The translations under genes were made by a program, and so were the position numbers. This document shows positions 5,914 to 21,661 of a stretch of DNA of 26,546 bases, one piece after another (the stretch's first letter is position 1; each line of letters starts with the position of its first letter). The notes under the pieces were generated by a model that saw nothing but the letters and a program-made list of their open reading frames with translations, ran no database searches and had not been told where the DNA came from. The stretch lies in the NCBI GenBank assembly GCA_043718025.1, contig JAYSWN010000130.1:1-26546 (forward strand), written 5' to 3'. The stretch is from Pseudomonadota bacterium (GTDB lineage Bacteria; Bdellovibrionota; FAC87; UBA2466).

Positions 5914-7194
5914 ATGGGAGTTTCGAAACTCGTTGGCGGACTAATGGCGACGCTGGCCGTGACTTTAAGTTCGCTAGTGTCGGCCGGTGAAACCTACGAC
6001 TACCCAGCGAGTGAACCCCTAAGGCCCGATCGCTTGCGGGTCGCCGACTTAGTGCGCTGGACCCAAGAGAACCGGATCGAAGATCTCGATAGCCTTTTGC
6101 AACTCATCAATAAAAAAGGGTACGCAAAGAACCTACAATCGTTTGCGCTGATGCACGCTAGCCGAAGCCTGCACCGTAAGCACATTTCTCCCCTGTTCCC
6201 GCGCGTGATCTTTAGCCACCAAGGGCTTACCGGCGCAGTTACGGGTGACCCCTCTGATCCCGAGAGCTACCAATCTTTGGAACTCGTAGAATTTGACGAC
6301 AAGAAAAATGATTTTGTTTTTAGCCTGATCGAATTCTCTGCAAAAAAAGGCGAAACGGGCAAAGCCACGCCGTCTCCATCAACTTGCACCGAATGCCACG
6401 GCAAAAATCCACGGCCAATTTGGGCGGCTTATCCGGTGTGGCCCGGATCGTACGGAAGTGACAACGATAAGCTGACCGTCGAAGAGCAGAAATTATTCAA
6501 AACTTTTTTAACTTCGTTTAACGACGGCAACCACGACCGTTACAAACTATTTCAGAGCCCCAACAATTTGAATTACCTCGATCCTAAGTCAAATTTAAAG
6601 TTGGGGTTAGAACTCAATTTTCAAAATTATCGCAAAACCAATGCCCAGTTAGTAAACAGCGGAGTGGCAAATCACTACGGCTTTGCCCTGCTCGCGGCAA
6701 GTAAGGGGTGTAAGAATATTTCTGAATTTCTGCCCGACCAACTTGCCCTAGCTCACGAACAACGCCTGGGGATGACCTACGAGCAGCTAAAACAAGCAAC
6801 CCGCGACGCCATTTCCCGCGAAGCCAAAGCCAGGGTAACCCGCTACAACAATTTAATCAGCCCCGAAGATAAAACTCTGGATTACGAGGACGCTGGCCAG
6901 TTTGATTTCACCCGCGCCCACATCACCGCCAAATTGCGTTACCTCATTGAGGGGCAGTCGATGACTCCCGATCTAGAGATGTCGACCTGGGCCTTAAGCT
7001 ACGCTCCCACCGGACGATCGTACTCTTTCTCAAATGGCCATTTCGGCATTGAAGATCTTTACCAACGCGAACTCAAAAACATTGCTACCGCCTCAAAACT
7101 AGGAACCTTTTCCGATGAACAACTAACTGATTGCGATTGGCTCAAAGACGCAAGCGTAGCCCTGTTGAAAACCAATCCACCGATAAAGCAATAA
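5914..7194 (+). CDS. Secreted hypothetical protein with one CxxCH heme-c motif
   Basis: GGGGGG RBS, signal peptide ending ..SLVSA, CTECH followed by PRPIWAAYPVWPGSYGS. 426 aa. Confidence 0.75.
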   Translation: MGVSKLVGGLMATLAVTLSSLVSAGETYDYPASEPLRPDRLRVADLVRWTQENRIEDLDSLLQLINKKGYAKNLQSFALMHASRSLHRKHISPLFPRVIFSHQGLTGAVTGDPSDPESYQSLELVEFDDKKNDFVFSLIEFSAKKGETGKATPSPSTCTECHGKNPRPIWAAYPVWPGSYGSDNDKLTVEEQKLFKTFLTSFNDGNHDRYKLFQSPNNLNYLDPKSNLKLGLELNFQNYRKTNAQLVNSGVANHYGFALLAASKGCKNISEFLPDQLALAHEQRLGMTYEQLKQATRDAISREAKARVTRYNNLISPEDKTLDYEDAGQFDFTRAHITAKLRYLIEGQSMTPDLEMSTWALSYAPTGRSYSFSNGHFGIEDLYQRELKNIATASKLGTFSDEQLTDCDWLKDASVALLKTNPPIKQ

Positions 7195-9697: not shown

Positions 9698-12088
9698 TCA
9701 AGCGGGAGTGGGTTCAAGCGTTACCATATCGGTCGGCACAGGCGTCGGCGAACCGATCGGCGCTGGCGTCGACGAACCGGTCGGCGCTGGCGTCATCGTA
9801 AACGTCGGTTCTACAATCGGAGTGATCGTCGGGTCCACCGAGATAGTTCCGGTAGGCGTAGGCGTTGGAGTCGGCGGCGGATCAACGATGCCATCATCGC
9901 TAAGGTACAAAATTTGCTTTAACACTGCTTCTGAAAAAAGCGGCAAGATCGGCATCGTCTCTTCGTGAAATCGATTGTCGTAAATGAAAGCGAACTTTTC
10001 CAATACAAAAAGAGCCACTTCACAAATCACCACGCCCTTGAATAGACCGGGGTAGCGACTCTCTACGTAAGGGGCATTTACTAGCAGTCCGCTATAATTA
10101 ACTGGATCACCGTCTTTACCACCCCCATCAACCAAATCAGAAATCAATGCGGCCTCGGCGATGATGCGATCATTTTTCTCCGCCGTGGTAAGACCAGGTT
10201 CAACCGTGTGAAAACTATCCCGACCAATGGTGCCGGGGGCGGGGCCGTGCCGAGAGACCATGGTGTCCTGGCTTAAACCTAAAAACACGCCGGTGGCGCT
10301 GGTGATCTGAATATTCTGGCGAGCAATGGGTTCGTCCGACGGCACGTTACTTCCTTTGGCAAAGTAAGTGAATTTCTTCTGCACGAAAGCCGACCCCGTC
10401 ACATAAAACCGACAACCGTTGTCGTCGGTTCGAATTGCCAAGTCTTTTAGAAAAAGCACCCCTTTAATGATCACGTCGCCGTAACACTCTACAATGCCAC
10501 TATTACGAAAATACTTACCGGTCAGATCGAGCACGATGCCCGAGAGAGATCCCCCGAAGGGCGAAATGTATTTCAAGTTAGGCGTGGCCGGAGGAAACTC
10601 ACGGGCCACCTCAAGAATTTGGGCAGTAGTTGGAGCCCCAATTTGCACGACAGTTTTTTCAATGACGGCCGGAGCCGCAATTCCCACTTCGGGTTCCGTA
10701 AGCACCGAGCGCAGGTAAGCCGCCAAACTTTCGTAACCTAGCGCCGCCGCTGGAGTGCGGGGAACGTACACTTTGCCTTGTTGTTTAATGCCGGCCGAAG
10801 ATAACGTGGTTAATTTTGCCGTAGCCCAGTTATCGGCGTGGTTGCCGTAAATTTGCAGAGAAAACGGACTTGGTGAGCCGAAAGCGTAGGGCATTCCGTG
10901 CCCAAAATCAATGACAAACGCGCCTTGCACATCGGCATGGCACGCCACGCAACCGCTGCCGCGAACCGCCACGGCGGGCTCCAGTTGTCTAAAAAGGTTG
11001 TTAAGGCTTGAGCCGCCGTCGCCATTGTCATCGGCAGACTTGAGCACTTTTGCACTACCCATCAAGATGGCCGTCGCCGCGGTCTTGGATTGATCAATAT
11101 TCCAACCGCTGAACTCAACGTACAGTCCGTCCATCGGATCCTTCACGGTTCTCGTACGCAAAGTTTCCGAATTAGCGCTAAACGCGATTAAAAACCGATC
11201 GCTTCCTTGAACGTAGGGGATTGAAGAATCTGCCAAACCAGACGCCTGACGAGTGGCTCCCAACGCCATTAATTTTTGACCTACGGTAGTCTTAGTGACG
11301 CTATCCGCTAGCGAGCTTAGAACTAGACGCCCTTCGTTAAACGAATTTTTTGTGACCTTGCCGACGGTCGAAGTGAGGGCCCCTTCGATAAGTCCGGCGG
11401 CCGATTTTGCCAGCACTAACTTTGCATTCGGCTGCTCACCTTTCAAGTGACCCTGATTCAAATCTCGCAGGGTATCAATCGAGTGAAAATTGGCCACGTT
11501 TGAAGCAAAGGCGCCGACGGTGCCCGAGGGCTTAATGATGAACCTCATCGTAGCGTCGGTGATTCGTCCGTACCCCGATTTGGGGATAGCCGTTACCGTA
11601 TACTCTTGAGTTGATTTCCCATTCGTTTCCATGACGACATTGATCGTGATCGCGGTAACCATCGTGGGGTCGATGCTTTGCCCGTTGATAAAGCTCACCG
11701 CCAATTTTTCCGCCCCGACAAGGGGCGTAACCGCGATTCCAAATTTGCCAAAAGTCTCTGCGCTCGAAGCCCGCACGCCTGAAACCATTGTCGAGGTTTT
11801 AGGCCCGGTCACCATAAAGTCGAGTTTCGCCACATCGTCTATTGCGTTCTTTTTAGCGCGCGCTCGCTGCTCATCGGTAGCATCGGGGTCGCCCACCAAA
11901 TAGAAAGTAACATTGGCGCTAACAAATTCAGTTTGCCCATTCACATTGAAGGTTAGAACGGACGGAACCACGGCCACCAAGGCGTTGCCACGGAACATTT
12001 TGTTGCAGCCCGAGAAAAAAATGGCCAAAAACAGTAAGGCGAATACCTTTTTTGAGAAACGCCCGCGGTAAATGTTTGTCTGGTTCAA
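9698..12088 (-). CDS. Large lipoprotein with one CxxCH motif and a Pro/Thr-rich C-terminal tail
   Basis: GGAGG RBS before a TTG start, basic N-region, hydrophobic stretch ending FSGC (lipobox-like), CVACH mid-protein, tail PPPTPTPTPT...TPAPTGSSTPAPIGSPTPVPT. Confidence 0.75.
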   Translation of the reverse strand: MNQTNIYRGRFSKKVFALLFLAIFFSGCNKMFRGNALVAVVPSVLTFNVNGQTEFVSANVTFYLVGDPDATDEQRARAKKNAIDDVAKLDFMVTGPKTSTMVSGVRASSAETFGKFGIAVTPLVGAEKLAVSFINGQSIDPTMVTAITINVVMETNGKSTQEYTVTAIPKSGYGRITDATMRFIIKPSGTVGAFASNVANFHSIDTLRDLNQGHLKGEQPNAKLVLAKSAAGLIEGALTSTVGKVTKNSFNEGRLVLSSLADSVTKTTVGQKLMALGATRQASGLADSSIPYVQGSDRFLIAFSANSETLRTRTVKDPMDGLYVEFSGWNIDQSKTAATAILMGSAKVLKSADDNGDGGSSLNNLFRQLEPAVAVRGSGCVACHADVQGAFVIDFGHGMPYAFGSPSPFSLQIYGNHADNWATAKLTTLSSAGIKQQGKVYVPRTPAAALGYESLAAYLRSVLTEPEVGIAAPAVIEKTVVQIGAPTTAQILEVAREFPPATPNLKYISPFGGSLSGIVLDLTGKYFRNSGIVECYGDVIIKGVLFLKDLAIRTDDNGCRFYVTGSAFVQKKFTYFAKGSNVPSDEPIARQNIQITSATGVFLGLSQDTMVSRHGPAPGTIGRDSFHTVEPGLTTAEKNDRIIAEAALISDLVDGGGKDGDPVNYSGLLVNAPYVESRYPGLFKGVVICEVALFVLEKFAFIYDNRFHEETMPILPLFSEAVLKQILYLSDDGIVDPPPTPTPTPTGTISVDPTITPIVEPTFTMTPAPTGSSTPAPIGSPTPVPTDMVTLEPTPA
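9731..9794. repeat. Coding tandem repeat, 24-nt period, about 3 copies
   Basis: GGTCGGCACAGGCGTCGGCGAACC / GATCGGCGCTGGCGTCGACGAACC / GGTCGGCGCTGGCGTC, encoding the TPAP(T/I)GS units. Confidence 0.85.
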
Positions 12089-12491: not shown

Positions 12492-13607
12492 TCAAGGCCG
12501 GTGGCTTATCTGCACCATCGAAAAGAAGTATTCAAGGGGGGTGTTCACGGGGGGAAAGCCGTGATTTTTAAGAAACAGATTCGCCGGCTCCATGTCGACA
12601 CGGTGGTAGGTGATCAATTTGCCGGTCAAACGGTCGAAAATGGCCATTTCATTCGTAAGGGTATCGAAGCGGAAGGACAAAAGCTGAGTGGTGCTCTGAC
12701 CATCGCTTTCTCTCTTTTCGGCCCGCGTAAACGTGAGCGCGGTGGGCCGGTCACTCTGCATAAAATCTTCGGCGGCCTTAAGGTAATTTTGCTTCAGTTT
12801 GGCGTACGCCCGTTGCTCGGCGGACGCATCGCCCTTACTCGCCTCCACATCATGAAGGTAATCTTGGCGAAGCCGGATAAACTCTGGGCTGTGGGCGCCA
12901 GCATTTCGTTTTGCCGCCGCCGCTTTATCGGCGGGAGACATCGACGCACCCCGCTCAGGGAAAATACCCAAAACATGTTTGTCGACGTGAGAAACCGCTT
13001 GATTCTCACTCGAAAAACCCACGAAGCCAATTTTTTCGCCGGCCGTAAGCTGGGCAAAACGTTGTGGAGCCTGCCCATATTTTTGCGGTGCCGTTACCAT
13101 TTTGGTGAAGTTGGTAAAAAACTGGCCGGTGGTGGCTAGAGTACCAATGGCCCGGGTGTCGATCGGAAGTTTGATAAACGCCGCCAACTCCCCTTTGCCG
13201 TTGGTGATGAGAAGTTCACCGGTGACCAGGTGCAGTTTAATTCGGGTGCCGTCTGGCAGAGGAGAAGCGTAGGTGAGTGACCGCTCGTCGACCGCATCCG
13301 AAGCAAACTGCCTAAGGCGCTGCTCATAGTCCTTCGGGCCAAAACCTACGGGTAGCGAGCCATCATTGCGCGCATTTTTAGGTGGAAAGAATCTTTTGGC
13401 AAAGTCTACGGGCCAATGGTCATCCCCCCAGGGAGACTCGGCCAAATGAATTTCCCGCACGGGAAATCTAACGCGCAGATGTTCTGGATCATGCAGCGGC
13501 GCAATTGCCGAGAATAGGCAAAGTGCGGCAGTTGCTTTAGTTAATTCAGAACCGAAACCAGAAGCAGAACAAACGACCAGCAAAAGGATAACGAAAACCC
13601 TTTGCAT
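12492..13607 (-). CDS. Secreted protein with tandem RNase-toxin-like domains (paralogue A)
   Basis: GAGGG RBS and signal peptide. C-terminal half reads GFSSENQAVSHVDKH...NYLKAAEDF...FRFDTLTNEMAIFDRLTGKLITYHR. Colinear with 16187..17266. The CDS is secure; the function is inferred. Confidence 0.6.
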   Translation of the reverse strand: MQRVFVILLLVVCSASGFGSELTKATAALCLFSAIAPLHDPEHLRVRFPVREIHLAESPWGDDHWPVDFAKRFFPPKNARNDGSLPVGFGPKDYEQRLRQFASDAVDERSLTYASPLPDGTRIKLHLVTGELLITNGKGELAAFIKLPIDTRAIGTLATTGQFFTNFTKMVTAPQKYGQAPQRFAQLTAGEKIGFVGFSSENQAVSHVDKHVLGIFPERGASMSPADKAAAAKRNAGAHSPEFIRLRQDYLHDVEASKGDASAEQRAYAKLKQNYLKAAEDFMQSDRPTALTFTRAEKRESDGQSTTQLLSFRFDTLTNEMAIFDRLTGKLITYHRVDMEPANLFLKNHGFPPVNTPLEYFFSMVQISHRP

Positions 13608-13648
13608 AGAACCCTCGCTGCCTCAATTGTAGCTGTATTCAATGGGGT

Positions 13649-14200
13649 TCAGTTAGCATTCCACTCAACGCACTCATTCACCAGCTGGGTGAAGGGTAAA
13701 CCGGGCTCAAGACCAACGGCCTTTACTGTAGACCAGTAGAATTCAATCTTTTGCGCAATCACCGGAGGAGTTCTCGGATCGGCTAGTAGCCCCTTTACGG
13801 CGACCTCGGTGCTCTTGATTCGCGCCCGTTCGGTGGGATCGGTGCTGGGCAGCAGGGCAAACTCATTAGAAAACGGTTGAATGGTCGTTTCAAGAACTTG
13901 CGGCGTTATCCCACCCGGAGGTAAGGCCCGCTGAAACTCAATTAGGCTCTTATTGATTTCGCTTAACCGGAGCAAAATACCCGCAGTTTGGGCTACCTGT
14001 TTCAGACTCACGCCGGAATGCATAGTGAGGGTTTCTCTTCTCACTTTGTCGGGAAGGTCAGCCACCCCCTTACTTTCGTCAGCCAAAACAACCAGTAGCG
14101 CATTGCAGACCAACCTCTCTTTGGTGGCCAAGGCGTGCGGGCCCGCAGCAATCAAAAAGGCACCTAAAAGCACACGTATCCCAGCGTTCACAACAGGCAT
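13649..14200 (-). CDS. Secreted hypothetical helical protein
   Basis: 183 aa, signal peptide ending HALA, co-oriented 41 bp upstream of paralogue A. No recognisable domain. Confidence 0.65.
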   Translation of the reverse strand: MPVVNAGIRVLLGAFLIAAGPHALATKERLVCNALLVVLADESKGVADLPDKVRRETLTMHSGVSLKQVAQTAGILLRLSEINKSLIEFQRALPPGGITPQVLETTIQPFSNEFALLPSTDPTERARIKSTEVAVKGLLADPRTPPVIAQKIEFYWSTVKAVGLEPGLPFTQLVNECVEWNAN

Positions 14201-14528
14201 ACCGGTGCAAGCCGGGCCAGGTTCAATTCAGGCGTAAAACGAGGTGCCACGAGCCCTTTTTTGTCAGTCACCTGGATTCTCTATGATGATTAGTGGAAGG
14301 GGGGGACGTGGCGTCTTTGCTCTCGCCTTGCTCGTGGGGGTTGGGCGGCGCTTCCACCCGGGCGTGATTCGGGCGGGCAGTGCAAGGCCGGGCGTTGGCG
14401 GTGTTTCAAGTCGTGACTTCACCCGCTTTGCCTTTTTGTCTTTGGCGCGCCAACCTCACTTCGGGGCTAGTGCTATTTAGGAGGGGCTCAACAACCGAAC
14501 TAAATCAAAAGCGTTCCACCCGTTTTCG

Positions 14529-14575
14529 GATTTTTTTTTAATTTTTCTTTTCGGAAAAAGAAGATAAAAAAAATC
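14529..14575. repeat. AT-rich imperfect inverted repeat
   Basis: GATTTTTTTTTAATTTTTCTTTT-CGG-AAAAAGAAGATAAAAAAAATC. Confidence 0.55.
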
Positions 14576-14606
14576 AGAGCCATTTCAAAGCCAGGAAATT
14601 TCCTCA

Positions 14607-14784
14607 GAGCATGTCTCAAAACCTTATTGGGCAGCACTCTCCCGTCATTGCGTCTGCCTTGGCAGGCGCGGCAACCCGTGGCAGCCTTGGTTTCTCGGTA
14701 ATCCGTGTTCACTCAACGTGACAAGTTTGCTTCAGCCGCACTGCGTGCGCAATGACGGCAAGATGCGACTTTTGAGACATGCTC
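14607..14784. mobile_element. 178-bp MITE-like element with IS5/IS1031-style ends
   Basis: Perfect 15-bp terminal inverted repeats GAGCATGTCTCAAAA (14607-14621) / TTTTGAGACATGCTC (14770-14784), flanked by TCA and TAA (TNA-type target). No transposase. Confidence 0.7.
14642..14758. repeat. Nested GTCATTGCG...CGCAATGAC palindromic element
   Basis: Perfect 11-bp inverted repeat CCGTCATTGCG (14642-14652) / CGCAATGACGG (14748-14758), with internal GCGGCAAC and TTGCTTC sub-motifs. Confidence 0.7.
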
Positions 14785-15125
14785 TAAGGAAACCGCCCAC
14801 CCGACTCGAAGCCTCACGCAAAAAAGAACCTCGGGCGATGACTATAAGACAAGTAAGGGGAACCAAGTGAAATGGGTCGTGGCAAAGTAAGTGGCCCCTC
14901 CACGGTACAGCACCACTCGGCAGCACCAGGATGAAAAGCTAAAATCTTCCCTTAAGTGAAACGCCAAGGCAAAACCCCACGCTCCCCACACATCGCCATT
15001 TCCACCAAATACTATTTGACGCCTTTTTCTATAAAATTGAATGCCGAACTCTGCTCCGAGACGTGGCGGTTTTAACCACCAGAGCAGACGTTAAAGCGCC
15101 CTCCAGGTCACGGATTGATTATTCT

Positions 15126-15152
15126 TCGAGGCGCGGTGAGGGCTGCCGATAG
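15126..15152 (+). promoter_or_regulatory. Putative sigma-28 (FliA)-type promoter of the HNH gene
   Basis: TCGA-N15-GCCGATAG against the consensus TAAA-N15-GCCGATAA, 67 nt before ATG 15220. Confidence 0.45.
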
Positions 15153-15219
15153 GCAAGGGCTTATCGCGGAATGTGGACGTGAAAAAGGCTCTCAAAAAAC
15201 TCATGATACTAATTTGTTC

Positions 15220-16158
15220 ATGACGACCACCGCTCAAATCCTAGACGCAAAAGTAAAACAGTTGGCAAAAACTCTTCTCCACACTGAAGGGTTGGTGCTC
15301 ACCACTCTCATGGAGATGAGCCGAGTCAGGGTCTTTGCGGAGCTAAATTACTCAGGGGTATTTGATTACTGCCTTCGCGCATTGGGCATGAGCAAAGAAC
15401 AGTCTTACTATTTTAAGAAAGTGGCCGCGGTTTCAGTACAGGTACCAGAGCTAAAAACTGCCATCGTTCACGGTGAACTATCGCTTTCATCGGCCCGCCG
15501 CATCGCCCCTATTCTCAATGCGGCAAACCAGGCGGAGTGGATTACCAAAGCCAAGGAGCTGAAGCAGAGTGAGCTTGAAAAGGCGGTGAGTGAAGTCAAT
15601 CCGCAAGCTCATCCTAGAGAGCGGATAAAGCCTGTCGCCAAAAACGTATCGGAGCTTCGTGTAGTCATTGACGATGTCACCGATGGCAACCTCACCATGC
15701 TCAAAGACCTGCTCTCTTCTAAATTAAGACGCCCGGCAACGTTGGCCGAAGTAATTGCTTGGGCAGTTCAAGAGACCAGGGAACGGCATGACCCCGAGGC
15801 TAAGGCCAAGCGGGCGAGAAGAGTTTCCCCAGGAAAACCCGAAAAACAAAATTTGCTTGGCGCTAATCCGGCAATCAACGCTGTGACTACAGCCGGCGTT
15901 ATAGAAGCCGCGCCAAGGCAAAGGGAATCGAACCGGCTGCCAATCCCCGCCGCCATTCGCCACGCCGTTGTGCAACGCCAAGGAGCGCAGTGTTCGTTTG
16001 TTTCGCAAGACTACCGGCGTTGTGAGCAGAAACGTTGGCTCGATTTGCATCATCGCTTAGCGGTGGCACACGGCGGGATGAACCAAATCGAGAATTTAGT
16101 GTTTCTTTGTCACCGGCACCACCGCGCGCTGCATGGAGCGAATCATTCGCCGTCATAA
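15220..16158 (+). CDS. HNH endonuclease with DUF222-like N-terminal region
   Basis: C-terminal RHAVVQRQGAQCSF..RC..LDLHH..AHGGMNQIENLVFLCHRHHRALH. N-terminal LNYSGVFDYC..LGMS..VPEL..AIVHGELSLSSARRIAP helical region. Start set at ATG 15220. Confidence 0.88.
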   Translation: MTTTAQILDAKVKQLAKTLLHTEGLVLTTLMEMSRVRVFAELNYSGVFDYCLRALGMSKEQSYYFKKVAAVSVQVPELKTAIVHGELSLSSARRIAPILNAANQAEWITKAKELKQSELEKAVSEVNPQAHPRERIKPVAKNVSELRVVIDDVTDGNLTMLKDLLSSKLRRPATLAEVIAWAVQETRERHDPEAKAKRARRVSPGKPEKQNLLGANPAINAVTTAGVIEAAPRQRESNRLPIPAAIRHAVVQRQGAQCSFVSQDYRRCEQKRWLDLHHRLAVAHGGMNQIENLVFLCHRHHRALHGANHSPS

Positions 16159-16186
16159 AGAATCATTCGTCTGCCTAATGCCAAGC

Positions 16187-17266
16187 CTATTTGTTAGTTG
16201 GGGTCAACTGAGGCAGGGCGAGAAAGTACTCAAACGGCGAATGCGCTGGCGGGAATTGATGATCCGCCAGCGAGCGGTTCGCAATATCCATGTTCAGACG
16301 AAAATACGTGGTTACCTTACCCGATCCGCGATCGATAACGGCCAGTTCGCGAGTGAGCACATCAAAGCGATAGGCCATGACATGTTCGGCCCCGTCGAAT
16401 TGCCGGATCTCTTTACGGGTGTAGGTCAAACTCGTAGCCCGTTCGCTTTTTAGAAATTTTTCGGCCGCTTGCATGTAACTCATTTTTAGTGCGGTATAGG
16501 CTCGCTCTGCACAACCTCTATCTTCTGCACAGTTTTTTATAGCGAGGGCAAAATTTGTTCGTAGAGCCTCGAACTCAGGCGGTCGATTAACGCTCGCGCC
16601 CATGGCAAAGTTGGCCTTGTAGGCGAGCGGCATTTGCCGCACTTCCGGCGCTAAGCCAAGCACATGCTTATCGACATGCACGGCCAAACTGTTCCCGCTG
16701 ATGAAACCTCCAAATTCCATACTTTCTCCCGCACTCAGCCTGGCCACTTTTTCTCCACGGCTAGGCAGCGAAACCGTTTCAACCAGGTGGGAAAACAGAT
16801 GGGCCGTAGAAACATAGGCGGCCACCGATCGCTGGTCCACCGGCAGCCTCAAATACAGCCCCACATGCCCCTGCTTATTGAGAATCAGCATCTCGCCAGT
16901 GGCCAAATGCATTTTGAGCGAAGTGGAGTCAGGCAGTTGTGAAAAGTGGGTAACCGATCGCGCATCGAGGCCGTCTCTGGCAAACGCTCGAAGACTCGCC
17001 TCAAATTCTTTCACGCCAAAACTGATTGGCTGATAGCCATCATTCGAGGGCTTGGGAGAGGGAAAATGATACCTTGCCAGCTCTATCGGACGCTCGCACG
17101 AACCCCAGAGCGTTTGACTCAAAGAAACGGCGCGCGCCGGGAACAAGAGGTGAACCGATTTTGGATCCTGCACTGAGGCGATGGCGGGAAGTTCAAACTG
17201 GCAGGCCAATGCCCCCGAGCAAAATAGAAAGAAGCCCGCAAAAAACGCAAACGCCACCCGTGACAA
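16187..17266 (-). CDS. Secreted protein with tandem RNase-toxin-like domains (paralogue B)
   Basis: GGAGG RBS, TTG start, signal peptide ending ALA|C. C-terminal half reads GFISGNSLAVHVDKHVLG...SYMQAAEKF...YRFDVLTRELAVIDRGSGKVTTYFRL. A 54-aa ungapped block (NDG...LI) shares 30 identities with paralogue A by hand count. Confidence 0.6.
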   Translation of the reverse strand: MSRVAFAFFAGFFLFCSGALACQFELPAIASVQDPKSVHLLFPARAVSLSQTLWGSCERPIELARYHFPSPKPSNDGYQPISFGVKEFEASLRAFARDGLDARSVTHFSQLPDSTSLKMHLATGEMLILNKQGHVGLYLRLPVDQRSVAAYVSTAHLFSHLVETVSLPSRGEKVARLSAGESMEFGGFISGNSLAVHVDKHVLGLAPEVRQMPLAYKANFAMGASVNRPPEFEALRTNFALAIKNCAEDRGCAERAYTALKMSYMQAAEKFLKSERATSLTYTRKEIRQFDGAEHVMAYRFDVLTRELAVIDRGSGKVTTYFRLNMDIANRSLADHQFPPAHSPFEYFLALPQLTPTNK

Positions 17267-17532
17267 ACAACCTCCAAAATCGTCGCTGAAGATCCAAATT
17301 TGTAAGGAAAACCTGTTGGCTTAGTCCTAACAAGTTTCGAGCTTCTTTGACAAGCTGCGCAACAACAAATCTGGATCGGCATCCGTTAACAGCCTGGGCA
17401 AATTTTGGATTTTGCTAGAGCCAACCAACCAAAATAATGGTCATTTCAAACATTCGCGGGTGAAGACAGAAATTAATCATGACGCCCTTAACGCACCATG
17501 CTACCAATTTTTAGGCAACGGGAAAAAGGGGA

Positions 17533-19884
17533 GTGTTGGTGGGGAAAACTATCTGTCTCGTCTTGGGGTTTCTCTTTTTGGTCAGTTCATCATTCGGTGG
17601 TGAAAAAAGGAACGGTTATTCCAGCGGCTATGGAAACCGCAACGGCAATGGCAACGGAAGAGCCAGACCTCCTTTCCCCGCTATGGCTGAAGCAAGGCCA
17701 GTCAATTCAAATCCAGCCTCGACCCACTTGGTCCATCGCTATTTAGTAGAAAAGCTCAAAATAGAAAAGCCTGAGCTATTCGACATGTCTTACAACTTTT
17801 TTGAACTCACGCGCTCACTCGGCGATGACCGAATGAGAAACGCCGAAGCGCTTAAAGAAATGGCCGAAACTTTTTTCGCGCCAGAGTCTGCAGAAAGCCT
17901 GCGCCAAATATTAGAAGCGGCGATGAAGACCGATTACAACAACGCCCTAATTCTCGCCGAAGCGGGCGTCGGCAAAAGCTTTTTGGTAGACCAGATCGCT
18001 GGTCTTTTTTCGTTCGGCATTTTGCCCGACTATCTCGCCAAAGAGATCGCCTATCCCGCCGATCAAAAGTCACCCTATGCAAATATTTTAAGGCAGTTCA
18101 TCAACAACACGCAGGTGGTGAAGATAAATACGGCGCTGCTCATGAAGCACGACGACAAGCCCGGCGAGGCTTGGTCGTCTGAAGAGGTGCGCATGCGTGC
18201 GACGTTAGAAGCGCTGTTTGCTGAAGCGCGCAAAGAGTTTAACCTTGCCGACAAAAGCGGAAAACGCGTTGGACGCCGCACGTTCTTTATGTTCGATGAG
18301 TTCGCCACCCTTCCCCCGTTCGTCAAAGAGTTGCTTAAGACCATTTTGGACGAAACCGGTTTTCAAAATCCTGACGTCGCGCTGGTCAAAAAGCCAGACC
18401 CTGGCTTCTCGGTACTCTGTTTCACCACCCCCGCAGAGTACCGGCGCATATCGGCCGGCGATTCAGCAATCGACCGGCGCTTTAAGCTAATTAAAATTGC
18501 GGAGCCGAATGAAAATTTGGCTTTTCGCATTGTTCGCGCCAAAAGCACCAATGAGTGGGAACCCCTCTACGGCGTCGCTATCAGCGACGAAGCAATATGG
18601 CATCTAATCCACAGCCGCCGTTTCTTAACCACGCCGCCTCTCGCCATGCCCGGCTCGATTCTAGCGGCGGTGAATACCTTAATGACGTGGAAGTTAACCA
18701 ACCCCGGAGAGAGCTCGAACGAAATTACCGTGAAAGACGCGCAACTTTATCTGACCCGGGCGGCCGGGCTGACCGATTTATGGCTTGAGGGGCCCAACGG
18801 CGAACCGCCATTGAGCGGGCTTGAAGAGCGAGCGCTTCAGCACGTAGTGGTTAAAGACCCTTCCCTTCATAAAATTGCCGAACGCTGGAAAGCATTTTCA
18901 CGGTTGGAGCACAACGGGGCGATTCCCGTATTCATCGTTATGGGGCCCACCGGTTCGGGAAAAGACACCCGTTTTGAGGCCTTAAATATGGCGCTATTTG
19001 GCCACCGAGGAAAGCAGTTCAATTTTAGTCTGGCGGGCACCAAGGGCTTCGGCATTGATGCCCTTATATCGGGTCCCCCGCTTGGCAATCATAGTGACGG
19101 AGAGCAGGGTTTGTTAGTACGGGCGTTAGACTCTGGATTGGGCAATAGCGCCGTTGCCTTCAACGAAGTGGCCGACACGCCAAGTGAAGAGCTAGAAAAG
19201 CTAAAGGTACTGGTTGAAAGCGGTGAAGTGCGTCCGAGCGGAATGGATTCGCGGCCGCGCCCCTTACGTTACCCCATCTTCTTAATGGGTCAGTGGGGCG
19301 AAGAGATCTTTGACGGCATGACCGATGCCGAAAAGATGGAGCGCTACCAATCTCTTACTCAAGATGAGATCGAAGGGTTCTTACTCAAGGGAAAAGGCGA
19401 TGGAACCATCGGCGCCGTTCCCCCGGCCCTAATCGAACGCGCAAAGAAATCCGGCGGCATCTATTTCGTACCCCCGATGGTGGTGGCAGATTTTCCGGCC
19501 GTAATCGGCACTTGGCTCCCGGGACTTATCGAAGACCTAAATAAAAATAACGCCATCGAAGTGGTGGTTTCTCCGCAACTGATCAAATTCATCGCCAACA
19601 CGGCGGCCTCAATGGCGCACGGAACGCGCGGGCTGAGTGCGGTCACTTCTGATTTCACAAAGGGCGCTATCTCTCGTTCGATGGACAAAGGTCTACCCAC
19701 AACTCACCTTTCACTCATCCTTGATCACATACGCAGAATCGATGGCCAAGACTTCATCGTGGTGCAGCACGTAGAGAGTGGGTTGTCTTATCAATTCACT
19801 CCCCAAGAGCTCTATCGGCATAAGTTTTCGTGCGGCGGACAGCTCGGTGAAATGGGCCAACCCGCGGCACTGGCTGCCAAATAA
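17533..19884 (+). CDS. ClpA/ClpB-like double AAA+ ATPase with an N-terminal signal peptide
   Basis: NBD1: AEAGVGKS, FMFDEF, TTPAEYRR, DSAIDRRF, EP. NBD2: MGPTGSGKD, LISGPP, AFNEV, PALIER, HGTRGL. N-terminus KTICLVLGFLFLVSSSFG. Exact start among 17533/17536/17539 is uncertain. Confidence 0.82.
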   Translation: MLVGKTICLVLGFLFLVSSSFGGEKRNGYSSGYGNRNGNGNGRARPPFPAMAEARPVNSNPASTHLVHRYLVEKLKIEKPELFDMSYNFFELTRSLGDDRMRNAEALKEMAETFFAPESAESLRQILEAAMKTDYNNALILAEAGVGKSFLVDQIAGLFSFGILPDYLAKEIAYPADQKSPYANILRQFINNTQVVKINTALLMKHDDKPGEAWSSEEVRMRATLEALFAEARKEFNLADKSGKRVGRRTFFMFDEFATLPPFVKELLKTILDETGFQNPDVALVKKPDPGFSVLCFTTPAEYRRISAGDSAIDRRFKLIKIAEPNENLAFRIVRAKSTNEWEPLYGVAISDEAIWHLIHSRRFLTTPPLAMPGSILAAVNTLMTWKLTNPGESSNEITVKDAQLYLTRAAGLTDLWLEGPNGEPPLSGLEERALQHVVVKDPSLHKIAERWKAFSRLEHNGAIPVFIVMGPTGSGKDTRFEALNMALFGHRGKQFNFSLAGTKGFGIDALISGPPLGNHSDGEQGLLVRALDSGLGNSAVAFNEVADTPSEELEKLKVLVESGEVRPSGMDSRPRPLRYPIFLMGQWGEEIFDGMTDAEKMERYQSLTQDEIEGFLLKGKGDGTIGAVPPALIERAKKSGGIYFVPPMVVADFPAVIGTWLPGLIEDLNKNNAIEVVVSPQLIKFIANTAASMAHGTRGLSAVTSDFTKGAISRSMDKGLPTTHLSLILDHIRRIDGQDFIVVQHVESGLSYQFTPQELYRHKFSCGGQLGEMGQPAALAAK

Positions 19885-19905
19885 AGGATAAAGATTCTAG
19901 GCAGT

Positions 19906-19932
19906 TCCAGCTAATCGTTGATCCGCCGAAGC
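19906..19932 (+). promoter_or_regulatory. Putative sigma-28 (FliA)-type promoter
   Basis: TCCA-N15-GCCGAAGC, 25 nt before ATG 19958. Confidence 0.35.
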
Positions 19933-19957
19933 CAATAATGTTAGCTACGGCCAGCTC

Positions 19958-21661
19958 ATGAAATTGGCCTTTGTCTTATTTTTATCCGTAGCCCTCGCTA
20001 TTTTCGGGGCCCCTTACGCTGTTGCCGCCCCCCTTCGTTTGGTGGTGCAGTCGCGACAAATTCAACCCGACGAAGAGCAACTAAAACAGTGGTTAGAAAA
20101 TTTTTGGGTCTCCACACCCGAGGGGCAAGAGATCTGGGCATTTCGTAATGAATCTGATGCCGAAGACATCTTTCGTAGTTCGGAGATTCCGTTCTTACTC
20201 CAACAGCAATTGTTAGCCTCGCACCGAAGCCTAACCGAAGAACAGATCATGCGCTTTGGCTGGCAGCACACCTACCGTGCACGCCACCTTTTGATCCTGA
20301 CGCCGTGGCTTCGCGATCAAATTCCCCAAACTCTCAGTCAGCGTTATTTTAACTACGAGCGCAGCGAGGTGAAATCGAATAACTACGCCACCGTTGAAGT
20401 GGCGAGTGACGAAGGGCCCGCAGCCTTTTTGCAAAGAGAAAAACTTCATCTCTCGCCGCAAGAATTTACACGGTTAAACAATTCTCTGATGACACTTGCA
20501 AATAAAACTTTTGCCGTCATCACACCTTACTCTTGGAAAAGTCTTCCGGCCAAGATTCGTTCAGACTTTTTGGCGGCTAAACTACGGCCTTCGTCACTTT
20601 TGCGGATAGGCTTGGAAGTCAGCCTAGTCGTTAGCGCCAATGACAGACCTAATGAAATAGCGGCCCAGCTCAGCCCTTCGGGCACCTACGCGGCGGCCCT
20701 CGAAGCTGACATCAAGCGCCACCAGCGGCCCGAACACGAAGTGCAAATTCCCCTGCAAGAGCTCTTACCCGAGGTGGTTCGCCGTTGGGTAAGTCGTTAC
20801 TTCGATGGTTACGGCCCCAACTGTTTTGGTTTAACCAAGGCCTTTTCGTTACTTACCCCCGAAGTAGAAGTGGTTGCCGATGTGGAGAGCTTAACCGGCG
20901 CCCTGAAAGAAGAGGGATTTGTCGGGGTTGAAAAAGAGTCCCCCCCGGAATGGGGCGATGTACTGATTTATGAAAGTAGCAGCGGAACCGGAATTCACTC
21001 CGCGATCTATTTAACGCAGAACATTTTACTTAGCCGAAATGGATTTTCAAAAACTTATCCCACGGTGATGCAGGAACAAAAAGTGGTCGAAGCCGGATAC
21101 TTCGGATCCGAAAAATTTCGCATGCGCGTTTACCGCAGAGACTCAGCGCTAAAGGCAAAGCCGTACGACCCCCTTTATTTCACCGAGCCGGCCCATGAGT
21201 TCATTCAATTGGGAATTCATCCGCACTCTTTTTTAGTGACCCAGCGCCGTATTCTACGAAGCTTCTTTACAAAACCGCTGTCCCGCTTGGCCGAAGACGA
21301 ATTAAGACGATACGCCGCTGATCCTCGTTTCGAAGCAAATTCGGCGCTGGCCCACACCGTACTGCGCTTTCAAGCCGACGTTGGGCGCTTTCGAGGCGTT
21401 TGCCAGTCCATCGGCTTTTTTCCTCTCTATGGCTCTATGCGGGGAAATAGGGACGCCTTAGGACGACTCAATCAAAAAGCACAGCTTGATCCAATCGAGA
21501 AAGAGTTTGTCGAATGGGTTAGTGCAACCTGGCCGTACGCTTACCTTGGTCCAGTGGGGGAACTTCGACGACGGCACTACCCATTGGCGCCGGCGCCAAA
21601 TTTTTGTTTCAAGACCCTACAGTCTGCCTGGGTCTGGATGTCGCTGCACGCACCGCTTTAA
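19958..21661 (+). CDS. Secreted protein with a central NlpC/P60-like (papain-fold) domain
   Basis: Signal peptide ending AVA. GPNCF...WGDVLIY...IHSAIYL..LLSRNG gives the Cys / GD-hydrophobic / His order of this fold. Confidence 0.65.
   Translation: MKLAFVLFLSVALAIFGAPYAVAAPLRLVVQSRQIQPDEEQLKQWLENFWVSTPEGQEIWAFRNESDAEDIFRSSEIPFLLQQQLLASHRSLTEEQIMRFGWQHTYRARHLLILTPWLRDQIPQTLSQRYFNYERSEVKSNNYATVEVASDEGPAAFLQREKLHLSPQEFTRLNNSLMTLANKTFAVITPYSWKSLPAKIRSDFLAAKLRPSSLLRIGLEVSLVVSANDRPNEIAAQLSPSGTYAAALEADIKRHQRPEHEVQIPLQELLPEVVRRWVSRYFDGYGPNCFGLTKAFSLLTPEVEVVADVESLTGALKEEGFVGVEKESPPEWGDVLIYESSSGTGIHSAIYLTQNILLSRNGFSKTYPTVMQEQKVVEAGYFGSEKFRMRVYRRDSALKAKPYDPLYFTEPAHEFIQLGIHPHSFLVTQRRILRSFFTKPLSRLAEDELRRYAADPRFEANSALAHTVLRFQADVGRFRGVCQSIGFFPLYGSMRGNRDALGRLNQKAQLDPIEKEFVEWVSATWPYAYLGPVGELRRRHYPLAPAPNFCFKTLQSAWVWMSLHAPL

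Follow-up and report, generated by a model that had tools for sequence, protein, structure and literature searches.

A terminal Cys-helix tag on predicted exported proteins of Bdellovibrionota, a possible address label for onward delivery

The window studied here is the whole 26,546-nucleotide contig JAYSWN010000130.1 (GenBank assembly GCA_043718025.1) from a bacterium of the phylum Bdellovibrionota, in which an earlier note had singled out the genes at 12492-21661 as a candidate effector locus encoding secreted proteins with a shared terminal C-x-x-x-L motif. Comparison of predicted proteins within and between genomes demonstrates a tag composed of a terminal Cys and a predicted helix, shows it to be enriched among predicted exported proteins, conserved and independent of position, and links it to the presence of a signal peptide. 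The tag is real, phylum-wide and apparently undescribed; it is genome-wide as well, and the tagged genes of the window are a local excerpt from a dispersed class. From these patterns we infer its function: the Cys-helix is very probably a functional tag and probably an address for onward delivery, and a disulfide to a shared partner as its chemistry is close to a toss-up.

The gene set was obtained with our own gene caller from the source genome (G000), and a home-made hydropathy heuristic divided the proteins into 765 exported, 136 lipoproteins and 1589 cytoplasmic. N-terminal CxxxL, counted at no more than 25 residues from the predicted cleavage site, occurred in 55 of the 765 predicted exported proteins versus 51 of the 1589 cytoplasmic ones (p = 2.8e-5). 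Counted per Cys in exported proteins, the motif was found at 56 of 250 residues near the N-terminus versus 75 of 1064 in mid-chain, and the control spacings CxL, CxxL and CxxxxL showed no enrichment over cytoplasmic proteins. Enrichment over cytoplasmic controls thus held at the N-terminus; the plain C-terminal count was not significant (32/765 exported vs. 57/1589 cytoplasmic, p = 0.49), and C-terminal enrichment emerged only if the Cys was a lone one or if the flanks were scored. Lone-Cys CxxxL was present N-terminally in 42 of 569 exported and 17 of 1156 cytoplasmic proteins (p = 1e-9) and C-terminally in 22 and 23 of them, respectively (p = 0.025), and a profile trained on the N-terminal tags without their C and L gave the 29 C-terminal matches higher scores than CxxxL in mid-chain (p = 6e-5). 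Moreover, the C-terminal tag is strongly supported because its Cys is conserved in homologues. With any hydrophobic residue at +4 (CxxxΦ), a lone terminal Cys was seen in 112 of 708 exported proteins versus about 3% expected from mid-chain windows, and a terminal CxxxΦ Cys was the only Cys of the protein in 40/569 exported and 13/1156 cytoplasmic proteins (p = 1.5e-10). Tat signals were predicted in only 2 of 112 tagged proteins. The best shared 6-mer upstream of the genes (p = 2e-4 before correction) was unconvincing, tagged (3/79) and untagged (36/611) proteins could not be told apart by their resemblance to cytoplasmic proteins of the same genome, and neither Pfam nor NCBIfam provided a model for the tag among the proteins scanned.

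The consensus was derived from 98 distinct tags chosen by homology, with the NlpC/P60 tags left out. Position +4 was hydrophobic in 89 of them (background 28%) and charged in none, with Leu in just 37, so the Cys and the +4 position of the proposed C-x-x-x-L were retained and its Leu proved too narrow. A Leu-specific motif was rejected, since any hydrophobic residue serves. Position +7 was hydrophobic in 52% of the tags and position +6 in 5%; the motif is therefore better written C-x-x-x-Φ-x-x-Φ and is predicted to form an amphipathic helix.

Five unrelated families keep the tag Cys at 30-45% identity while the flanks are not conserved, which bears out the Cys conservation that the earlier note had wanted checked. 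Three of them are represented in the window. The Hsp100-like family comprises 12 members, two truncated and 10 with an intact C-terminus; all 10 carry the terminal Cys and a hydrophobic +4, and six of the 10 have no other Cys in the mature chain. In a search of 301 genomes, the tag was likewise present in 11 of the 11 other genomes with a match; a related-locus search with the single Hsp100 protein as the query returned no match. In the RNase-like family, 18 of 19 proteins (21 profile matches less one fragment and two low-complexity matches, plus P0019) have a Cys shortly after the signal region and the remaining one has an ambiguous start; over 20 family members, the tag Cys column is at least 90% conserved. 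The NlpC/P60-domain homologues of the 567-residue window protein, at 14 loci, carry the tag C-terminally in six cases and N-terminally in seven, with one broken by a stop, so the proposed independence of position is borne out by a tag that switches ends. The NlpC/P60-like domain is all that the N-tagged homologues have in common with the window protein, and one of them is Cys-rich.

The other two families lie outside the window. A terminal Cys was found in 27 of 27 CP-ATP-grasp ligase loci with a signal-like start and a closed 3' end, within 18 residues of the end in 26 and at 41 in one; the 30 loci also included one 3'-open, one 5'-open but tagged, and one cytoplasmic and untagged. An independent protein search found the tag in 13 of 13 signal-bearing ATP-grasp homologues, plus one with an ambiguous start, versus none of four homologues without a signal (42-43% identity), so the tag tracks export rather than fold. 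Most ATP-grasp members have no Cys in the mature chain besides that of the tag. All 24 SF2 helicases have a Cys 2-26 residues past the predicted cleavage site (28 loci minus one duplicate and two 5'-open; three of the 24 score just below the signal cut-off), and the lone signal-less protein lacks the tag. Searches of the 301 genomes for families f3, f6, f8 and f27 gave no match with the queries used.

These data bear first on the possibility that the motif arises by chance or reflects ordinary intramolecular disulfides. The motif is short, its plain C-terminal count is not significant, about a fifth of the broad-motif matches in the genome are expected at random, and a 183-residue protein of the window has two terminal Cys residues and no homologue. 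Against this stand the enrichment of sole terminal Cys residues given above, their lack of a partner in six of ten Hsp100 and most ATP-grasp members, and a Cys kept where its flanks are not. We consider this explanation very improbable, and it is already contradicted for four of the five tagged window proteins, the 183-residue protein excepted. Altogether, the tag as a class is enriched, its Cys is conserved and that Cys usually has no partner in the same chain, the reverse of the three findings that the earlier note had named as counter-evidence.

A second possibility is that the Cys-helix staples identical or neighbouring subunits through homo-oligomeric or cargo-cargo disulfides, for stability or to keep them inactive until reduced, without a shared receptor. 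It would suit the conservation of nothing except the Cys and one hydrophobic face; a lone Cys can pair with its twin in an oxidising periplasm, and Hsp100 proteins are oligomeric. With one motif placed on five unrelated folds, at either end, and following export rather than fold, a single recognition element is the simpler account, and we judge stapling improbable.

Tagged genes are dispersed. The 86 lone-CxxxL genes of the genome (55 N-terminal and 31 C-terminal) are scattered, 15 have a tagged neighbour where 9.1 are expected (p = 0.09), and their neighbourhoods are not conserved; hence, the special effector locus was not upheld and a locus-specific system was rejected. In permutations, three tagged genes among six consecutive ones arose in 46% and four in 2.5%. 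The tagged protein families extend, at varying density, over at least a dozen taxonomic families of Bdellovibrionota, and in samples of six relatives the Leu motif was enriched only in G108 (5/35 vs. 1/72).

The cargo was examined by scanning 83 of the 86 proteins against Pfam, with matches for 24, compared with 28 among 85 exported neighbours without the Leu motif. Families dependent on ATP, S-adenosylmethionine (SAM) or acetyl-CoA accounted for nine of the 83 tagged proteins versus none of the 85 neighbours (p = 0.0014), and cytosol-type families in the wider sense for 13 tagged proteins. Cytosol-type cargo as a whole includes Hsp100, SF2 helicases, ATP-grasp ligases, acetyltransferases and tRNase-like folds. 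The cargo is thus unrelated, as the earlier note had said, and often of cytosol type. Three more predicted exported Clp/AAA+ proteins are encoded in G000, at C29:21538-23646, C36:1451-6118 and C232:17703-20306; among them, one is N-tagged and 40% identical to cytoplasmic ClpB, and one is an M41 peptidase fusion with a C-terminal tag. The 18 candidates from relatives include an exported NAD synthetase, Ppx/GppA and a NIF phosphatase, and also ordinary envelope proteins, e.g., BamA. The synthetase (L094:8228-10174, genome G007) is glutamine-dependent; it is tagged C-terminally and starts with a predicted signal peptide.

The periplasm of the source organism oxidises thiols: DsbB and VKOR are present in the genome and even Cys counts are commoner in untagged exported proteins (285/465, 61%) than in cytoplasmic ones (612/1270, 48%); tagged proteins have even counts in 25 of 71 cases, partly by definition. 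Dsb systems are the basis for expecting a lone periplasmic Cys to be bonded or modified, so in such a compartment the exposed conserved tag Cys is probably one or the other.

The best explanation overall, which we hold at slightly less than an even chance, is that the Cys-helix serves as an address label, directing a second transport step toward the contents of the prey cell, with a shared carrier engaged by mixed disulfide. From established cell biology, tagged enzymes would exit via Sec unfolded and so be kept from the predator's own cytosol, and cargo that needs ATP, SAM or acetyl-CoA or cuts tRNA would be useless in the periplasm and would have to travel further. In the oxidising periplasm the tag helix would dock on a shared carrier or secretion component, the tag Cys would form a mixed disulfide with that carrier, and reduction in the prey cytosol would free the cargo, much as the enzymatic subunits of AB-type toxins are freed. 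The onward address is argued for because enzymes that depend on cofactors or tRNA would be idle in the predator's periplasm, and because predator and prey cytoplasm are kept apart. That separation is described in the available sections of PMC2797640; according to those of PMC10482364, pools equilibrate in part despite it. A Bdellovibrionota-wide effector-delivery route, in which about a tenth of this genome's secretome is Sec-exported, clipped by the tag to one shared carrier and freed in the prey cytoplasm, is a more tentative proposal. If true, the delivered set would consist of Hsp100 unfoldases, helicases, ligases, acetyl- and methyltransferases and tRNases, and the predator would rewire its prey, not merely digest it.

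A further possibility is that the tag serves only the crossing of the predator outer membrane (e.g., by a type II system) or retention on the surface, in which case the enzymes would use cofactors leaking from damaged prey and there would be no covalent carrier. This account leaves unexplained why a reactive Cys is the single invariant residue with all flanks variable, and most exported hydrolases have no tag; we rate it as rather unlikely.

Alternatively, the tag could be a membrane anchor, with the Cys lipidated (S-acyl or diacylglyceryl) and the helix lying on the bilayer; enzymes would then be loaded on vesicles, prey membranes or the predator's own surface. The pattern C-x-x-x-Φ-x-x-Φ resembles acylated anchors, whose usual shape is a Cys plus an amphipathic helix at a flexible end, and the genome has two Lgt genes. 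Lgt modifies lipoboxes on uncleaved signal peptides, however; two tag-poor genomes (G032 and G034) also have two Lgt genes, some family members keep the tag despite a lipobox, and the 31 C-terminal tags have no transmembrane helix behind them and mostly no basic tail. Their tails are 7-30 residues long, with a best 12-residue hydropathy of 1.8 in one and at most 1.1 in the rest. For MYXO-CTERM, the available sections of PMC11980579 give the Cys residues as predicted to be lipidated, which would favour an anchor. On balance we regard the anchor as unlikely.

Several observations weigh against an address label used by a shared carrier. All signal-peptide assignments come from our own heuristic and are predictions only, homologues share ancestry so that conservation counts are not independent trials, and the predatory lifestyle of the source organism is deduced from its phylum alone. 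The motif is degenerate, and five of the six C-terminal NlpC/P60 tags have their hydrophobic residue at +5. Six or seven CP-ATP-grasp members are also predicted lipoproteins, which would make them membrane-bound rather than released. Among the tagged proteins scanned, 59 of 83 have no Pfam match, and some cargo is of a periplasmic type, namely S41 and trypsin proteases, vWA and NlpC/P60; the exported Clp protein at C232:17703-20306 lacks a terminal Cys, so the tag is not on every exported ATPase. Random samples of 200-600 kb from six relatives gave no significant enrichment of the broad motif, and no neighbour recurred among 431 open reading frames (ORFs) around homologues. A carrier, receptor or modifying enzyme was not found, and counts of Lgt, DsbA-like (thioredoxin-like) and CPBP proteins in five genomes did not separate tag-rich from tag-poor ones.

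Secretin loci, Lgt neighbourhoods and paralogue families of exported proteins yielded no carrier candidates. The two full-length Lgt genes lie at C196:1031-1840 and C199:124328-125137, the second adjoining an lnt-like gene, and three of four relatives have two or three Lgt matches as well. A second, reduced type II/IV-like cluster with a secretin, an ATPase and a platform protein is located at C175:6929-12511, and a complete type II secretion system on C41. The C175 cluster is a possible route for tagged cargo.

The region 12492-21661 itself holds six genes on both strands and is not a single operon. Five of them have hydrophobic N-termini that our heuristic scores as signal peptides, in agreement with the earlier note, and translation placed all of its motifs where it had reported them. 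Paralogue A (371 residues, 12492..13607, minus strand) has a predicted signal peptide and the N-terminal tag CLFSAI (13503..13520, Cys30 codon 13518-13520); Cys30 is the sole Cys of the predicted mature chain, the hydrophobic residue is at +5, not +4, and the closest relative, P0048, has CLVLF at this place. Next comes a 183-residue predicted exported protein of unassigned fold (13649..14200, minus strand) with the N-terminal tag CNALL (14093..14107, Cys32 codon 14105-14107). It is the weakest case: no homologue was found among 100 other genomes searched, and a further Cys near the C-terminus (13670-13672) could pair with Cys32 in an ordinary disulfide.

Paralogue B (359 residues, 16187..17266, minus strand) has a predicted signal peptide, the N-terminal tag CQFEL (17189..17203, Cys22 codon 17201-17203) and a conserved HxxKH motif. 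Its model, built from a six-sequence alignment with a mean predicted local distance difference test (pLDDT) score of 72.5, contains two domains, one resembling CdiA-CT (8ey4; Z 8.8, root-mean-square deviation 3.3, 86 aligned) and a separate one resembling the colicin D tRNase (5znm; Z 6.8, deviation 3.5, 97 aligned). All top seven fold matches were such toxins, with middling Z; the ESM Atlas offered nothing above 0.78 and PDB sequence searches were blank. Being 40% identical to paralogue B, paralogue A is predicted to have the same two domains, and the fold match, on which the label RNase-like depends, suggests that both may be BECR/tRNase-like proteins. CQFEL comes straight after ALA and fits a lipobox pattern as well. 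Paralogue B alone could be lipidated; CQFEL would not be a lipobox of the family because the homologues have linkers between signal and Cys.

On the plus strand, a predicted exported double AAA+ protein of the Hsp100/Clp fold (781-783 residues, 17533..19884) ends with the tag CGGQL (19831..19845). It falls below all NCBIfam cut-offs; the AlphaFold model adopts a ClpC/ClpB fold (Foldseek E 6e-27 to ClpC, template-modelling score 0.5-0.57), in accord with the label Hsp100. Ring 1 keeps its Walker A and B motifs (GVGKS/FDE) and the arginine finger, and ring 2 is degenerate (GSGKD/FNE). The family keeps a predicted signal peptide, unlike cytoplasmic class I Clp proteins. In the predicted models of this protein and paralogue B the tags lie outside the folded core at pLDDT below 50, here in a tail (residues 762-781) that contains a short helix. 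A Gly/Asn-rich low-complexity linker after the signal peptide (17593-17680) varies among homologues. The last gene (19958..21661, plus strand) encodes a protein of 567 residues, predicted to be exported, that combines an NlpC/P60-like Cys-His domain (GPNC at Cys289) with the C-terminal tag CFKTL (21605..21619). It has no Pfam match itself; two of 10 homologues pass the PF00877 cut-off and the domain's Cys and His are invariant in 11 sequences, so the NlpC/P60-like label is supported via homologues.

Between these genes a multicopy mobile element has inserted (14274..16165, ends approximate, plus strand), and it stands outside the tag system. It consists of a leader of about 1 kb and an HNH gene (15220-16158), in which only the HNH part weakly matched the IscB model. 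The leader is non-coding, with a 23-nt inverted repeat (14599-14621/14770-14792); it may be a structured RNA, and an Rfam search of it gave no match. The genome has two more near-complete copies (85-88% identity), and fragments are spread over some 50 contigs. Elsewhere in the window, a predicted lipoprotein of 796 residues (9698-12088, minus strand) has a CxxCH motif and a tail rich in Pro and Thr, and an exported protein of 426 residues (5914-7194, plus strand) also has CxxCH; neither has a Pfam or NCBIfam match.

How Bdellovibrio-like predators bring enzymes to the prey cytoplasm is an open question in the available sections of PMC2797640 and PMC12428579. Full-text literature searches, whose coverage excludes subscription papers and preprint supplements, returned no published description of the tag, and it is not brought up in the available sections of four papers in which Bdellovibrio is mentioned, two of them reviews and two surveys of domains (PMC12428579, PMC10482364, PMC3239186 and PMC12419801). 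As a sequence handle, the tag yields a list of predicted effectors among orphan genes, a single residue to mutate and a bait for the presumed carrier. Cargo such as ATP-grasp ligases, NAD synthetase, helicases and Hsp100 suggests active re-programming of prey metabolism.

Among known systems, MYXO-CTERM/myxosortase comes close: its sorting tag is also short and built around an invariant Cys, and in predatory former Deltaproteobacteria each genome encodes dozens of unrelated exported proteins that carry it (available sections of PMC11980579 and bioRxiv 10.1101/2023.06.07.544157). The Cys-helix tag differs, since it occurs at either end (a strictly C-terminal position fails for 55 of 86 tags), lacks the transmembrane helix and Arg-rich tail described in PMC11980579, and marks cytosol-type enzymes, whereas MYXO-CTERM, in these accounts, marks surface proteins. 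NCBIfam sorting-domain models matched none of 10 + 51 proteins, and the CPBP protease family PF02517, a family-level assignment that does not resolve the myxosortase subfamily, has one match in G000 and 0-3 in four relatives. The lipobox of the Lgt/Lsp/Lnt pathway likewise uses a single Cys near the N-terminus of exported proteins, and CQFEL stands at a possible +1; the +1 Cys after L-A/S-G/A was seen in paralogue B only, while in homologues the tag Cys lies 2-26 residues past the predicted cleavage site or C-terminally and can coexist with a true lipobox.

AB toxins such as CdtB-PltA of typhoid toxin resemble the tagged cargo in proposed principle only, in that a Sec-exported enzyme is held by a single disulfide, whose reduction in the target frees it (available sections of PMC6469816). 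Here, a B subunit or partner was not found, the cargoes are dozens and unrelated, their genes are unlinked and the target is presumably bacterial; no linked partner-subunit gene recurred in the 431 ORFs, with which an unlinked partner is still compatible. The window proteins are like ClpC/ClpB (PDB 7abr, 6qs4), colicin D and CdiA-CT (5znm, 8ey4) and NlpC/P60 (PF00877) in fold or domain, and unlike them carry predicted signal peptides and the tag; the Hsp100-like protein also departs from ClpC/ClpB by its degenerate second ring, and the RNase-like proteins from colicin D/CdiA-CT by having such a domain twice and by the absence, in the window, of a cytoplasmic immunity gene next to them. PEXEL of Plasmodium and RxLR, the effector motif of oomycetes, combine a signal peptide with a short second motif that marks effectors for export to the host cell, but they are eukaryotic, N-terminal only and not Cys-based, and PEXEL is cleaved by a protease. 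As a sorting signal that works from either end without a membrane anchor, the Cys-helix tag would fit none of the known signals tested.

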